The notes beneath the pieces were generated by a model that was given only the letters and a program-made list of their open reading frames with translations, made no database searches and was not told the DNA's origin. Below are positions 806 through 5,142 of a DNA stretch of 5,142 bases, piece by piece. Both the position numbers and the translations under genes were made by a program. Origin of the DNA: a virus. Lineage: Duplodnaviria > Heunggongvirae > Uroviricota > Caudoviricetes. Each line of letters opens with the position of its first letter. Within the stretch, counting starts at the first letter, position 1. The DNA lies in IMG/VR virus record IMGVR_UViG_2693429584_000012. One strand, written 5' to 3'.

Positions 806-1418
806 ACCAGCGCGAAGACGATGTAAAAACGATGAATGTCGGGAATGGTTTCACCCTGCATTCGCTAATCAGTGGTGGTGCTCTCCAGAGTGTGGAACCA
901 AGATAGCACTCGAACGACGAAGCAAAGAACGCGAAAAAGCGGAAAAGGCAGAAAAGGCAGCAGAGAAGAAACGACGACGAGAGGAGCAGAAACAGAACGA
1001 TAAACTTAAGATTCAAAAACTCGCCTTAAAGCCCCGCAGTTACTGGATTAAACAAGCCCAACAAGCCGTAAACGCCTTCATCAGAGAAAGAGACCGCGAC
1101 TTACCATGTATCTCGTGCGGAACGCTCACGTCTGCTCAGTGGGATGCCGGACATTACCGGACAACTGCTGCGGCACCTCAACTCCGATTTGATGAACGCA
1201 ATATTCACAAGCAATGCGTGGTGTGCAACCAGCACAAAAGCGGAAATCTCGTTCCGTATCGCGTCGAACTGATTAGCCGCATCGGGCAGGAAGCAGTAGA
1301 GGAAATCGAATCAAACCATAACCGCTATCGCTGGACTGTCGAAGAGTGCAGGGCCATCAAGGCGGAGTATCAACAGAAACTTAAAAAACTGCGAAACAGC
1401 AGAAGTGAGGTTGCATGA
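795..1418 (+). CDS. ninG: NinG (Rap-like recombination-associated protein, lambda Orf204 family)
   Basis: 207-aa ORF starting [52 protein letters not shown]..., near-identical to lambda NinG as recalled. GAGG at 785..788 precedes the ATG at 795. The start overlaps the ninF 3' end. Confidence 0.92.
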
Positions 1419-2080
1419 ATATCTACGAAAGAATTGATGGCAGCAAATACCGAAATATTTGGGTAGTTGGCGATCTGCACGGATGCTACACGAACCTGAT
1501 GAAAAAACTGGAGACGATAGGATTCGACACCAAAAAAGACCTGCTTATCTCGGTGGGCGATTTGGTTGATCGCGGTACAGAGAACGTAGAATGCCTGGAA
1601 TTAATCACATTCCCCTGGTTCAGAGCTGTACGTGGAAACCATGAGCAAATGATGATTGATGGCTTATCAGAGCGTGGAAACGTCAATCACTGGCTGCTTA
1701 ATGGCGGTGGCTGGTTCTTTAATCTCGATTACGACAAAGAAATTCTGGCTAAAGCTCTTGCCCATAAAGCAGATGAACTTCCGTTAATCATCGAACTGGT
1801 GAGTAAAGGAAAAAAATATGTCATCTGCCACGCCGATTATCCTTGTGATAAATACGAGTTTGGAAAGCCAGTTGATCATCAGCAGGTAATCTGGAACCGC
1901 GAACGAATCAGCAACTCACAAGACGGGATCGTGAAAGAAATCAAAGGCGCGGACACGTTCATCTTTGGTCATACGCCAGCAGTGAAACCACTCAAATTTG
2001 CCAACCAGATGTATATCGATACTGGCGCAGTGTTCTGCGGAAACCTCACATTGATTCAGGTACAGGGAGAAGGCGCATGA
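1415..2080 (+). CDS. ninI: Serine/threonine protein phosphatase (lambda PPase, Orf221 family; calcineurin-like metallophosphatase)
   Basis: 221-aa [35 protein letters not shown]...GDLVDRG...GNHE..., carrying the GDxHG / GDxxDRG / GNHE metallophosphatase motifs and near-identical to lambda protein phosphatase as recalled. Its ATG overlaps the ninG stop (ATGA). Confidence 0.95.
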
Positions 2081-2700
2081 GACTCGAAAGCGTAGCTAAA
2101 TTTCATTCGCCAAAAAGCCCGATGATGAGCGACTCACCACGGGCTACGGCTTCTGACTCTCTTTCTGGTACTGATGTGATGGCTGCTATGGGGATGGCGC
2201 AATCACAAGCCGGATTCGGAATGGCTGCATTCTGCGGTAAGCATGAACTCAGCCAGAACGACAAACAAAAGGCTATCAACTATCTGATGCAATTTGCACA
2301 CAAGGTATCGGGGAAATACCGTGGTGTGGCAAAGCTCGAAGGAAATACTAAGGCAAAGGTACTGCAAGTGCTCGCAACATTCGCTTATGCGGATTATTGC
2401 CGTAGTGCCGCTACGCCGGGCGCAAGATGCAGAGATTGCCACGGTACAGGCCGTGCGGTTGATATAGCCAAAACAGAGCAGTGGGGGATAGTTGCTGAGA
2501 AAGAGTGCGGAAGATGTAAAGGCGTCGGTTATTCAAGAATGCCAGCAAGCGCCGCATATCGCGCTGTGACGATGCTAATCCCAAACCTTACCCAACCCAC
2601 CTGGTCACGCACTGTTAAGCCGCTGTATGACGCTCTGGTTGTGCAATGCCACAAGGAAGAGTCAATCGCAGACAACATTTTGAATGCGATCACACGTTAG
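2077..2700 (+). CDS. Q: Late gene antiterminator Q (lambda Q family)
   Basis: 207-aa [67 protein letters not shown]... with a CRDCHGTG...CGRCKGVG zinc-binding motif, essentially lambda Q as recalled. Its ATG overlaps the phosphatase stop (ATGA). Confidence 0.95.
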
Positions 2701-2742
2701 CGCCATGATTGCCACGGATGGCAACATATTAACGGCATAATA

Positions 2743-2790
2743 TTGACTTTTTGAATAACTTTGGGGAAACTTGACACCAATAATGGGCGT
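2743..2790 (+). promoter_or_regulatory. Late promoter pR' with overlapping qut (Q-utilisation) site
   Basis: About 40 bp after the Q stop: TTGACT (2743..2748), a 17-bp spacer TTTTGAATAACTTTGGG, then GAAACT (2766..2771). This aligns position by position with lambda pR' (TTGACT-TATTGAATAAAATTGGG-TAAATT) as recalled. It is followed by TGACACCAATAATGGG, containing a -10-like AATAAT in the position of the lambda sigma70 pause-inducing element. Confidence 0.6.
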
Positions 2791-2912
2791 TTTTTACATG
2801 TCATTGATGAGTCTCAATAACCTGCCGCCGAGTAGTTTTTATGCTCTGAATTGTATTTGTGTAGTAAACATGCTGACTGCAATGTAATAGAGTTTTTTTA
2901 GCCTGTAACCTC

Positions 2913-2962
2913 TTGACGGCATTGAATTGCTTTTGTTATGAGTTGTAAGCCAATGTTATCAT
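2913..2962 (+). promoter_or_regulatory. Candidate sigma70 promoter(s) of the cargo membrane-protein gene
   Basis: Option 1: TTGACG (2913..2918) with an extended -10 TGtTATGAG (2934..2942). Option 2: TTGTTA (2933..2938) with an extended -10 TGtTATCAT (2954..2962). Either would start transcription just upstream of the GGGGTGG Shine-Dalgarno and the ATG at 2980. Predicted by eye only. Confidence 0.35.
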
Positions 2963-2979
2963 CTTGTATTGGGGTGGTT

Positions 2980-3696
2980 ATGAAGGATGGTGCGCTGCTC
3001 AGGAGTTCTTCACTTTTTATTGCCTACATGGGATGCCTTGGATGGGGGAGTGCTTATTTCTATGGATGGGGTACTTCTTTTTACTACGGCTTCCCATGGT
3101 GGATTGTAGGTGCAGGTGTTGATGATGTTGCCAGAAGTTTATTTTTTGCAGTTATCGTCATTGCTATATTTCTTATCGGTTGGGGTATTGGTGTTGTATT
3201 CTTTTTCGCAGTGAAAAGAAAACATTCTATGCAAGAGCTAAATGTATTTCGCCTTTATTTTGCTGTGGAATTATTGTTTGTGCCGGCAATTATTGAGTTT
3301 TCTATATTGAGACAGAAGATTCAGGTACCTCTTTTGCTACTGTCAGCAGCGATTGCGCTGGCGGTTACAATTTCGATAAGATCTTATGGGCGATTTTTAT
3401 CGGTATCATGCTTCTATGATAAGCCATTTATAAAAAAACATTTTTTTGAGATTGTGATGATTGCTTTTGTGGCATATTTCTGGCTTTTTTCATTTCTGAC
3501 AGGATATTACAAACCACAGTTTAAGAAAGAATATGAAATGATTAATTATAATGATGGTTGGTATTATGTTCTTGCTCGTTATGATAATTGTCTGGTTTTG
3601 TCTACTTCTTTCAATGCAGGTAGTAAAAGGTTTGTCATTTATCAATCAGCACAAGATAAGAATCTTCAGGTTGATATTGTAAGGACCAGAATTTAA
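2980..3696 (+). CDS. Hypothetical polytopic inner-membrane protein (cargo/moron gene; about 4-5 predicted transmembrane segments plus a ~65-residue C-terminal soluble domain); function unknown
   Basis: Long ORF in frame 1 ending TAA 3694..3696. The preferred start is ATG 2980, preceded by GGGGTGG 3 nt upstream; the longest-ORF start is ATG 2938, which has no RBS and lies inside the predicted promoter. Hydrophobic stretches include SLFFAVIVIAIFLIGWGIGVVFFFAV, LYFAVELLFVPAIIEFSIL, VPLLLLSAAIALAVTISI and FFEIVMIAFVAYFWLFSFLTGYY. The gene is strongly AT-rich compared with the flanking phage genes. I recognise no homolog. Confidence 0.7.
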   Translation: MKDGALLRSSSLFIAYMGCLGWGSAYFYGWGTSFYYGFPWWIVGAGVDDVARSLFFAVIVIAIFLIGWGIGVVFFFAVKRKHSMQELNVFRLYFAVELLFVPAIIEFSILRQKIQVPLLLLSAAIALAVTISIRSYGRFLSVSCFYDKPFIKKHFFEIVMIAFVAYFWLFSFLTGYYKPQFKKEYEMINYNDGWYYVLARYDNCLVLSTSFNAGSKRFVIYQSAQDKNLQVDIVRTRI

Positions 3697-3829
3697 TTGG
3701 CTGCATAAATAATATTTTAAGTTGCAAGTTGGCTATTCGTAGGAATAGAACCTTAGGCATGCTGAATGCGTTTTCTGAACATTGTTTTATAAACTGTGTC
3801 TGCTTGCTGTTGTGATCCTGCTTTTAGTG

Positions 3830-3940
3830 ATGGTGATGATGGATTTCACCAGCAGGATAATGTTGGTACTGACTGATGGCGCTCTGGTCTGCGGCATTGT
3901 GGTATTGCTGTGGCCGATGATGAAAGAACAGAATGAATAA
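3830..3940 (+). CDS. Candidate small hydrophobic (single-TM) peptide, 26-36 aa depending on start; speculative
   Basis: Frame 2 ORF MVMMDFTSRIMLVLTDGALVCGIVVLLWPMMKEQNE ending TAA 3938..3940. Alternative starts are ATG 3836, 3839 or 3860. It has a hydrophobic core with a charged C-terminal tail. No convincing Shine-Dalgarno; it could be a chance ORF or a gene remnant. Confidence 0.2.
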   Translation: MVMMDFTSRIMLVLTDGALVCGIVVLLWPMMKEQNE

Positions 3941-3943
3941 TTC

Positions 3944-3972
3944 TTGACTTTTTTGTTTACTGTTTATTAAAA
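3944..3972 (+). promoter_or_regulatory. Promoter-like element sharing the ATAAT..TTGACTTTTT core with pR'
   Basis: TTGACT at 3944..3949 followed by a T-rich spacer and TATTAA/TTAAAA -10-like hexamers at 3965..3972. The -35 side resembles the pR' -35 region at 2737..2753. Weak -10; speculative. Confidence 0.25.
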
Positions 3973-4126
3973 AATCAACCGCATGGTGAATCCTCCTTGG
4001 AGGGGCTAAATGATCGAGTTTTAAGGGCACGTAGCGAGTTCTGTTTGATCATTGCAGAACTTAGCGGGAGGCGCCATGCGTACATCACTAATGTTATTTC
4101 CTTCTATCATTTTCCTTGTGAGTTCT

Positions 4127-4153
4127 GGCTGCGCATGGCGCGGCCTTTTTTTT
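4127..4153 (+). terminator. Rho-independent (intrinsic) terminator
   Basis: GGCTGCGC (4127..4134), loop ATG, GCGCGGCC (4138..4145) forms an 8-bp GC-rich stem with one U-G wobble, followed immediately by TTTTTTTT (4146..4153). It lies 87 nt upstream of the nanS-p start. Confidence 0.65.
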
Positions 4154-4239
4154 ATGACCTGCCACTGGCAGATGGTCATCCTGTGATTTGATTCCGCTTC
4201 CGGCTTTTTAACTCTGTTCCTCTACACGGGAGAAATTCG

Positions 4240-5142
4240 ATGTCGATTAAACATTACGATGTTGTCAGGGCGGCGTCGCCGTCAGACCTTGCGGAAAAGC
4301 TGACACACAAACTGAAAGAGGGCTGGCAGCCATACGGCGGATCGGTTGCCATTACGCCGTACACACTGATGCAGGCGGTGGCTATTGAAGGAGAGCCACA
4401 GGTCGGCCCTTCATCTGAGCCGGATTGGTACTACGTCATCGTACTGGCCGGGCAGTCCAATGCCATGGCTTACGGTGAAGGGCTTCCGCTGCCGGATTCA
4501 TACGATGCTCCGGATCCGCGCATTAAACAGCTGGCGCGCCGCAGTACAGTGACGCCGGGCGGGGCTGCCTGCAGATATAACGATATTATTCCGGCTGACC
4601 ACTGTCTGCATGATGTGCAGGATATGAGTACGCTGAATCATCCGAGGGCTGACCTGAGCAAAGGGCAGTACGGCTGTGTCGGCCAGGGTTTACATATTGC
4701 CAAAAAACTGCTCCCGTATATCCCGAATAACGCGGGGATCCTGCTGGTACCATGCTGTCGTGGTGGTTCGGCATTTACCCAGGGCGCGGAGGGGACATTC
4801 AGCGAGTCCACGGGGGCCAGTCAGGATTCGGCACGCTGGGGGGTGGGCAAGCCGTTATATCAGGATCTGATTTCCCGCACAAAAGCGGCATTGCAGAAAA
4901 ATCCCAAAAACGTTCTGCTGGCCGTCTGCTGGATGCAGGGTGAGTTTGACATGAGCGCCGCCACCCACGTACAGCAACCTGCGCTGTTTACAGCCATGCT
5001 GACACAGTTTCGTGCTGACCTCTCCGTGTTTAACGCGCAGTACCATGGTGGCAGTGCTGCAGATGTGCCGTGGGTTTGTGGTGACACGACGTATTACTGG
5101 AAAAATACATACGCTACCCAGTACGACACCGTGTACGGCGGG
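4240..5142 (+). CDS. nanS: Prophage-encoded sialate O-acetylesterase (NanS-p type; DUF1737-like N-terminal domain plus SASA/SGNH esterase domain), 5' partial; continues past window end
   Basis: ATG 4240 preceded by GGGAG at 4228..4232. Frame 1 is open for 301 codons to the window edge: MSIKHYDVVRAASPSDLAEKLTHKLKEGWQPYGGSVAITPYTLMQAVAIEGE...DWYYVIVLAGQSNAMAYGEG..., with the GQSN catalytic-serine block typical of SASA-family esterases. Missing from the ORF track only because there is no stop inside the window. Confidence 0.8.
   Translation, partial: MSIKHYDVVRAASPSDLAEKLTHKLKEGWQPYGGSVAITPYTLMQAVAIEGEPQVGPSSEPDWYYVIVLAGQSNAMAYGEGLPLPDSYDAPDPRIKQLARRSTVTPGGAACRYNDIIPADHCLHDVQDMSTLNHPRADLSKGQYGCVGQGLHIAKKLLPYIPNNAGILLVPCCRGGSAFTQGAEGTFSESTGASQDSARWGVGKPLYQDLISRTKAALQKNPKNVLLAVCWMQGEFDMSAATHVQQPALFTAMLTQFRADLSVFNAQYHGGSAADVPWVCGDTTYYWKNTYATQYDTVYGG

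Follow-up and report, generated by a model that had tools for sequence, protein, structure and literature searches.

A prophage-borne gene of the STM1630 family: genomic contexts, predicted architecture and a tentative role at the cell envelope

What is the function of the small membrane protein gene that occupies the late cargo slot of a lambdoid prophage? We examined this question in a stretch of 5,142 nucleotides (referred to here as the window) from the Caudoviricetes record IMGVR_UViG_2693429584_000012. On its plus strand, an open reading frame (ORF) runs from an ATG at 2980 to a stop codon at 3696 and codes for 238 amino acids (aa), or for 252 aa if read from the ATG at 2938. A preliminary description of this DNA had placed the ORF at these positions, regarded it as the main cargo gene of a prophage hotspot coding for an uncharacterised polytopic inner-membrane protein, and proposed that it acts in superinfection exclusion or abortive infection. 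The ORF, its cargo position and the general class of protein were borne out by our analysis. The proposed function gained no support, as PADLOC returned no match and the PHROGs hits were to families of unknown function only. The reading best supported by our data, which we put forward tentatively, is that the product is a non-enzymatic envelope factor that would act at the periplasmic face of the inner membrane in the animal-host niche. We favour it because genes related to the envelope and to innate immunity recur as neighbours of the family, and because the family is restricted to animal-associated bacteria. We classified the gene product as a prophage moron-encoded inner-membrane conversion protein.

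Distribution and genomic neighbours of the family

The protein is 100% identical to CPT_434_68 of phage 434 (OL657226) and to WP_001302581.1 of prophages of Shiga toxin-producing Escherichia coli (STEC). It matches phrog_1521 (function unknown) with an E value of 2e-154. The expert, HHpred-based annotation of CPT_434_68 reads merely "putative membrane protein," the newest PGAP name for an identical copy is "STM1630 family protein," and PF27470 "TfpB" is the precomputed Pfam tag of each of the 104 homologs. The gene itself is not new, and the family is already catalogued yet uncharacterised. The literature yielded nothing relevant under PF27470, CP0168, the PHROG identifier or the protein accessions, and we found no functional study of any member. 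No sequence or fold relative of known function was found either, and scans of the protein and 57 family members against Pfam, NCBIfam and PADLOC gave nothing informative.

Only 72 clusters emerged from an exhaustive profile search that covered 1.84 billion representative proteins. The named members came from animal-associated Enterobacterales, Pasteurellaceae and Neisseriaceae, all annotated as hypothetical, with two exceptions on contigs of metagenome-assembled genomes (MAG) labelled Veillonella and Acinetobacter. The "MAG: Veillonella sp." contig is 99.7% identical to positions 1302 to 4356 of the window and is almost certainly a mis-binned fragment of an E. coli prophage; the "Acinetobacter sp." MAG protein may be a similar contamination. 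Among complete E. coli genomes, 692 of 5,426 carry the gene (at least 99% identity in 679, usually with two copies each), and the carriers are mostly STEC of serotypes O157:H7, O26, O103, O111 and O145.

The family occurs as a solitary gene, carried by prophages, virulence plasmids and genomic islands in pathogens of the gut and mucosa, and no conserved partner gene was seen over the prophage, plasmid and chromosomal contexts examined. In lambdoid prophages, the gene lies 3' of at least three types of the late antiterminator Q: the lambda type in the window and in O26, the Q82 type in phage 434 and O157:H7, and a PF06530 type in Yersinia prophages and next to an E. coli allele of 68% identity. 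The late region of this 68% allele comprises Q, an N6_N4 methylase gene, two tRNAs, the gene, lpxR, a pmrD-like gene, a nanS-p-type esterase gene, DUF1378 and DUF826. In 933W-type phages, stx usually lies between the tRNAs and nanS-p. The lpxR gene adjoins the 100% allele in 434 and O157:H7, a 66% allele in Citrobacter rodentium, where the two genes stand side by side at the equivalent chromosomal site, and the 68% allele. In these contexts lpxR, which codes for a lipid A deacylase, is 0.2 to 1.4 kb away from three alleles of the family. A pmrD-like gene joins it in prophages with a late layout like that of phages carrying Shiga toxin (Stx) genes, and the lpxR/pmrD-like grouping may be a recurrent envelope-remodelling cargo set.

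Further copies were found on plasmids. A 59% allele is present on 19 plasmids of enterotoxigenic E. coli (ETEC), mostly porcine, where it is divergent from the heat-labile toxin (LT) genes eltAB and 867 bp away from them. About 55 of the 74 eltAB plasmids, many of them from human isolates, are without the gene; homology is lost approximately 250 bp upstream of eltA. A search for phage remnants between eltA and the gene gave only a match related to insertion sequences (IS). In Shigella, 106 plasmids carry the gene, including the invasion plasmids (pINV) pCP301, where it is CP0168, and that of strain M90T. The pINV allele (56%) is annotated as hypothetical and sits among IS elements about 5.5 kb from spa40. 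A 39% allele resides on Rep3 plasmids.

On chromosomes, a 57% E. coli allele in complete genomes lies between probable iroBC and bor/iss. Members of the Pasteurellaceae and Neisseriaceae carry the gene as a lone insertion amid housekeeping genes, and in Glaesserella parasuis it adjoins a cytolethal distending toxin gene (CdtA/C domain). Aggregatibacter actinomycetemcomitans has two paralogs per genome with about 29 to 30% identity to the query, one between ribA and a GDP-mannose dehydratase gene and the other between an aminotransferase gene and mdh.

The Salmonella ortholog, STM1630 (SL1344_1560), is 46% identical to the window protein and shares its family, length and architecture. We infer that the locus is STM1630 from its PGAP name and its neighbours, since it adjoins a gene for a 408-aa protein with Sif and GDSL lipase domains that we took to be sseJ. 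The ortholog occupies the same locus in subspecies enterica, diarizonae and arizonae, and it is chromosomal and vertically inherited. Its expression clusters with genes of Salmonella pathogenicity island 2 (SPI-2) (PMC2639726), and it has been reported to have a transcription start site and a -10 box of its own. In the invasive ST313 strain D23580, STM1630 is down-regulated and two single-nucleotide polymorphisms disrupt the -10 box. The one phenotype reported for an STM1630 mutant is hypermotility, in a single screen (PMC4219756).

Start codon, selection and predicted architecture of the protein

Several start codons are available to the gene. The RefSeq and phage 434 records begin at 2953 (247 aa). 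Homologs are 236 to 238 aa long and their Met1 is invariant; the 238-aa start is, on the strength of this alignment, the correct one, and the 247-aa (2953) and 252-aa (2938) starts are not supported by it. In the ETEC plasmid allele, a TAA directly follows the upstream ATG, and a GTG aligned with 2980 serves as the start.

The gene is under strong purifying selection. For the unsaturated pairs, the ratio of nonsynonymous to synonymous substitutions (dN/dS) was 0.055 against the Escherichia albertii copy and 0.086 against that of an Escherichia sp., and the Salmonella orthologs of subspecies enterica and diarizonae gave 0.068. The preliminary description had asked whether related copies are disrupted; all 10 copies compared, drawn from prophages, plasmids and chromosomes, were intact. 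Given the dN/dS values of 0.055 to 0.086 and the integrity of all 10 copies, the gene is more than a chance ORF. The atypical base composition that had been remarked on was also evident, with a GC content of 31 to 41% over the gene versus about 50% in its flanks.

We compared the architecture over alignments spanning the Enterobacterales, Pasteurellaceae and Neisseriaceae and in an AlphaFold2 model. Hydropathy analysis revealed four strong and one weaker, aromatic, helix-length segments followed by a polar tail, in agreement with the four to five hydrophobic segments described earlier. The three GWG motifs and FYGWGTSFYYGFPWW were likewise present. The model (pLDDT 78.4, pTM 0.71) places helices at residues 10 to 36, 47 to 78, 89 to 111, 116 to 136 and 155 to 181, and strands at 184 to 190, 193 to 201, 204 to 208, 219 to 222 and 231 to 235. 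The polar C-terminal domain is therefore present as described, although it spans about 57 residues and not the roughly 65 first estimated. We infer a topology with five transmembrane (TM) helices, the N-terminus inside and the C-terminus outside; the C-terminus was placed outside because the loops 79 to 88 and 137 to 154 are rich in K and R. The C-terminal beta domain gave weak matches to SH3-like folds. No solved structure resembled the predicted fold; the predicted-structure libraries searched covered viruses.

The most conserved part of the protein comprises TM1, the loop that follows it (loop 1) and the start of TM2 (codons 10 to 60; pattern ...GWGSAYFYGWGxSFYYGFPWW...DDVARSLF). Mean column entropy was 0.43 bits in TM1 and 0.51 bits in loop 1, versus 2.15 in TM4. 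Only A15, A25, Y26, G37, P39, G175 and Y195 are nearly invariant across the broad family, and the broad-family alignment keeps no polar or catalytic residue, in line with the earlier remark that no catalytic motif could be seen. The TM1 motif AY.Y..G...Y.G.P, a length of about 235 to 250 aa, further TM helices and the C-terminal beta domain are present family-wide.

Cargo slot and predicted transcription in the prophage

The window covers the late-regulatory region of a lambdoid prophage, with the C-terminus of NinB, NinF, NinG, a NinI phosphatase and a lambda-type Q, whose 3' end is nearly identical to that of lambda Q. An AT-rich stretch between Q and a DUF1737/SASA esterase holds the gene (Table 1). 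The esterase has the domains PF08410 (1.7e-14) and PF03629 (4.2e-13) and is annotated in 434 as "SASA family carbohydrate esterase." The same slot is filled differently in lambda and in O26, and in the equivalent slot the 68% allele is accompanied by lpxR and the pmrD-like gene. Phage 434B lost the gene and still grows, which indicates that it is dispensable for lytic growth. The gene thus has the features of a moron: a non-essential insertion between conserved phage genes, alternative cargo in relatives and a deviant base composition.

We then considered how the gene may be transcribed. The predicted pR'-type promoter of the window aligns base for base with lambda pR' (TTGACT-17-TAAATT). Homology with lambda stops at about 2780, just past the start site, and the lambda 6S RNA and tR' are missing. 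Homology with 434 sets in at 2819, exactly at the terminator annotated in 434. The hairpin of this terminator has a predicted energy of -13.3 kcal/mol in 434 (z -3.3), -13.7 in O157:H7 and -9.1 in E. albertii. In the window, a 4-nt deletion reduces it to -2.2 kcal/mol (z +0.2), and the same is seen in O26 and in the Veillonella-labelled contig. Among 80 viral contigs with an identical protein, the hairpin was broken in all 47 lambda-Q contexts; of the 32 Q82 contexts, 30 had an intact hairpin, 1 a broken one and 1 could not be scored. As the copies are identical, the loss may go back to a single event in an ancestor.

Lambda pR' is constitutive and outside CI control. Since the window has a pR' of this type, a destroyed hairpin and its next terminator only at 4127 to 4153, transcription of the gene and of the TciB-like ORF that follows it should take place in the lysogen even without Q. 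With the 4 nt deleted, the cargo genes would fall within the leader of pR' that is transcribed independently of Q. Q82-type prophages have an intact terminator in front of the gene.

The region immediately 5' of the gene contains TTGACG (2913 to 2918), a promoter-like TTGTTA-18-TATCAT (2933 to 2962) and the purine-rich GGGGTGG (2971 to 2977). A block of 71 nt here is conserved with the ETEC plasmid allele, which hints that the gene has a promoter of its own as well. The preliminary description had gone further and credited the gene with its own promoter-like signals and a good ribosome-binding site. A scan for sigma-70 promoters was at chance level, with three sites versus 3.7 expected; the GGGGTGG is only a moderate ribosome-binding site. 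A CII-dependent promoter at 2933 to 2946 (match to TTGYN6TTGY) was rejected, as the match was not above chance.

Table 1. Positions of the gene, its conserved parts and its surroundings in the window
Feature	Position	Strand	Basis
Target coding sequence; predicted inner-membrane protein	2980..3696	+	STM1630 / PF27470 "TfpB" / PHROG 1521 family
TM1, aromatic/glycine-rich loop 1 (predicted periplasmic) and start of TM2	3007..3159 (codons 10-60)	+	most conserved part
C-terminal five-stranded beta domain, predicted periplasmic	3523..3693 (codons 182-238, ~55-57 residues)	+	AlphaFold2
Conserved 5' region of target	2909..2979	+	homology with ETEC plasmid allele (59% identical) begins at 2909
Predicted pR'-type late promoter: -35 TTGACT 2743-2748, 17-nt spacer, -10 GAAACT 2766-2771	2743..2771	+	lambda alignment
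Remnant of 434 terminator hairpin; left end of 434-shared module	2819..2840	+	homology with 434 begins at 2819
First strong intrinsic terminator downstream of pR': 8-bp GC-rich stem and T8	4127..4153	+	-16 kcal/mol, z -2.5
Lambda-type late antiterminator Q, left slot border	2077..2700	+	Pfam PF03589 Antiterm 1.2e-57
DUF3927/TciB-like 52-aa membrane ORF, TTG start	3782..3940	+	Pfam PF13064 3.4e-14, phrog_1470
DUF1737 and SASA sialate O-acetylesterase (NanS-p type), right slot border	4240..5142, cut by window end	+	Pfam

The DUF3927/TciB-like ORF lies 3' of the gene in every viral locus whose downstream flank could be scored. Neither the plasmid nor the chromosomal contexts contain it, and in E. 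albertii it is frameshifted. We considered a two-gene unit of the target and this ORF and rejected it, because the pair co-occurs solely in close phage modules. Further downstream, a 36-aa ORF (4076 to 4186) has a lipoprotein-like signal (...LVSSGC) and encloses the terminator at 4127 to 4153. Phage 434 has a 1-nt indel at this point and a different, 62-aa frame annotated, so the 36-aa ORF is probably not a conserved gene.

The window as a whole is a mosaic. The lambda-type Q is like that of O26, and the nanS-p right flank is like that of 434. At 448 to 683, the window is without the DNA adenine methyltransferase gene found between ninB and ninE in O26 and phage 434. On the minus strand within Q, TTGCGAGCACTTGC at 2364 to 2377 matches the CII-binding consensus at the position of the lambda antisense promoter paQ, as would be expected of a lambda-like paQ.

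Possible functions and comparison with known systems

According to our model, the gene would be a stand-alone lysogenic-conversion (moron) gene. Its product would be a 238-aa inner-membrane protein and not an enzyme, with a cytoplasmic N-terminus and five TM helices, and would expose to the periplasm the near-invariant aromatic/glycine-rich loop after TM1 and the small SH3-like C-terminal beta domain. On the periplasmic side of the inner membrane, the protein would bind some conserved component of the envelope, and this binding would alter the behaviour of the envelope in the animal-host niche. It would thus belong to the same functional class as its fellow prophage cargo LpxR, the PmrD-like protein, Bor/Iss and NanS-p, rather than being a dedicated anti-phage device. 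In the lysogen, transcription would proceed without Q from the lambda-type pR' to the terminator at 4127 to 4153. The model draws on neighbours suggestive of host interaction that recur with different alleles, namely lpxR, the pmrD-like gene, bor/iss, probable iroBC, eltAB, the sseJ-like gene, cdt and the type III secretion region of pINV.

Several points weigh against this model. Shared neighbourhoods are a weak guide to function, since AT-rich genes gained by horizontal transfer group together for other reasons as well. Only the 19 plasmids, mostly porcine, have the gene next to eltAB, some 55 further eltAB plasmids are without it, and lpxR is absent from the window itself and from the O26 copy. 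In Salmonella, deletion of STM1630 was reported to leave intramacrophage replication unimpaired, and hypermotility was not among the phenotypes pursued when the mutants were re-tested (PMC4534456). The binding partner is hypothetical, and both the topology and the transcription in the lysogen are predictions; judged by its sequence, the -10 element GAAACT is weaker than that of lambda pR'.

Superinfection exclusion is the leading alternative. Here, the periplasmic loop and the beta domain would keep phage DNA from crossing the inner membrane, for instance through occupation of a host channel or of the site at which the tape measure protein inserts, as for HK97 gp15 and P22 SieA. Such a role would suit a small inner-membrane protein that stands alone and turns its conserved parts to the periplasm, coded for by a prophage cargo gene that lytic growth can do without and that lambda-Q lysogens probably express. 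The single-gene insertions in many genomes and the two copies in A. actinomycetemcomitans and many STEC would fit as well. However, no PADLOC model or annotated exclusion PHROG was matched, the periplasmic motif is near-invariant rather than diversifying with an overall low dN/dS, and only 3 of 50,697 phage records contain the gene. The Salmonella ortholog is vertically inherited with SPI-2-type regulation, and fixed copies reside on virulence plasmids (Shigella pINV and ETEC LT plasmids). The invariant motif, the low dN/dS, the virulence-regulated ortholog, the fixed plasmid copies, the animal-associated range and the repeated host-interaction neighbours fit phage defence poorly, and we consider exclusion unlikely. 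Abortive infection is more improbable by far. A polytopic prophage membrane protein that lacks an enzyme motif could be a latent channel or membrane-disrupting effector like RexB, depolarising the cell once infection is sensed, but no sensor partner gene was present in any context examined and the gene is kept stably as a regulated core gene in Salmonella. PADLOC detected no family in the target and none that recurred among the 57 members, the sole abortive-infection match being AbiC in 2 of the 57 (E 0.014). An orphan immunity protein against a membrane-targeting toxin of competitors (a pore-forming bacteriocin, a contact-dependent inhibition toxin or a type VI secretion effector) would account for scattered single insertions of a stand-alone inner-membrane protein in mucosal and gut bacteria armed with such weapons, and the variable middle helices beside the conserved core could set specificity. 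Yet none of the contexts places a cognate toxin gene beside it, and the architecture is unlike that of colicin immunity proteins, which have three to four TM segments; we rate this role as improbable.

A role in type IV pilus or pseudopilin assembly is suggested by the Pfam label "TfpB." The taxa that carry the family have type IV pili. In this role the protein would modulate pilus assembly through binding to membrane-anchored pilins, much as TfpY/FimB-like proteins would, and its size is near that of TfpY/TfpZ (235 to 245 aa) (PMC11841053). However, none of the approximately 15 distinct contexts has an adjacent pilin gene, and five TM helices with a domain of about 55 residues contrast with the three TM helices and large two-sheet periplasmic domain of TfpY-like proteins. 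Of the 72 clusters, the approximately 20 full-length ones whose names were looked up include none from Pseudomonas, Dichelobacter or Moraxella. Seeding a search with the Neisseria/Pasteurella subgroup brought up no named relatives, and the "TfpB" of Acinetobacter baylyi is an unrelated PilB-like ATPase. We give this role the same low standing as immunity. Last in plausibility is an accessory to toxins, which would aid the production or release of neighbouring AB5-type toxins or effectors (LT, cytolethal distending toxin or, by position, Stx). The gene does lie beside eltAB, cdtABC and the sseJ-like gene, and in prophages it occupies the slot between Q and the lysis genes in which stx sits. We rejected this role as the principal explanation because most eltAB plasmids (about 55 of 74) are without the gene; in addition, none of the three phage records is named Stx-converting, and the window and phage 434 carry the gene without a toxin. 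At most, it would be a highly improbable one.

We also considered a bolder reading, which is doubtful. The STM1630/PF27470 family would be a new single-gene envelope module whose invariant aromatic loop acts on a conserved envelope machine. If true, the outcome could be either a new block to macromolecule entry (phage DNA or bacteriocin) or control over the remodelling of lipid A or of the outer membrane, together with LpxR and PmrD. Horizontal transfer would then have put it in the prophage slot of enterohaemorrhagic E. coli, on ETEC LT plasmids, on Shigella pINV and in the Salmonella SPI-2 regulon. The family is widespread in important pathogens. Besides the classic phage 434, four major enteric pathogens carry this one orphan family in their mobile virulence DNA. 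Were a phenotype defined, thousands of genomes would gain an annotation together, and one of the commonest non-toxin occupants of a slot that elsewhere holds Shiga toxin would be explained. The loss of the terminator suggests a simple route by which a late-operon cargo gene becomes a lysogen-expressed one. The cross-pathogen pattern of contexts and the terminator loss linked to the type of Q appear not to have been described in the searchable literature.

In the TfpY/TfpZ/FimB-like proteins, which promote pilus assembly and whose genes adjoin that of the pilin, three TM helices are combined with a large periplasmic domain built of two three-stranded sheets (Qaderi et al. 2025, PMC11841053). 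They resemble the window protein in size, inner-membrane location, a periplasmic C-terminal domain containing beta structure and the lack of a recognisable enzyme domain. Compared by description (PMC11841053), the window protein differs in its five TM helices, its single five-stranded domain of about 55 residues and its lack of a pilin neighbour. STM1630 differs in being chromosomal, vertically inherited and co-regulated in the manner of SPI-2 genes, while the window gene is prophage-borne.

Lambda RexB, P22 SieA and SieB, T4 Imm and HK97 gp15 are, like the window protein, small prophage-encoded inner-membrane proteins that are not essential to the phage. There is no detectable homology between them, and the family studied here is mostly non-phage. 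To our knowledge, RexB, SieA/SieB, Imm and gp15 lack a C-terminal beta domain and are phage-restricted. Cargo between Q and the lysis genes (stx, LT-II, the porin Lc/NmpC, NanS-p and LpxR) shares with the gene the same slot and the same logic of transcription from pR'. The products of that cargo are secreted, outer-membrane or periplasmic proteins with known activities, in contrast to an inner-membrane protein whose activity is unassigned. Phage 434 carries the same module, composed of the gene, the TciB/DUF3927 ORF, a small ORF and the SASA esterase, with 98.9% DNA identity from position 2819 of the window onward. In 434 and O157:H7, a Q82-type antiterminator and an intact terminator stand ahead of the gene and lpxR lies upstream, whereas in the window the gene follows a lambda-type Q and pR', and the terminator is destroyed.

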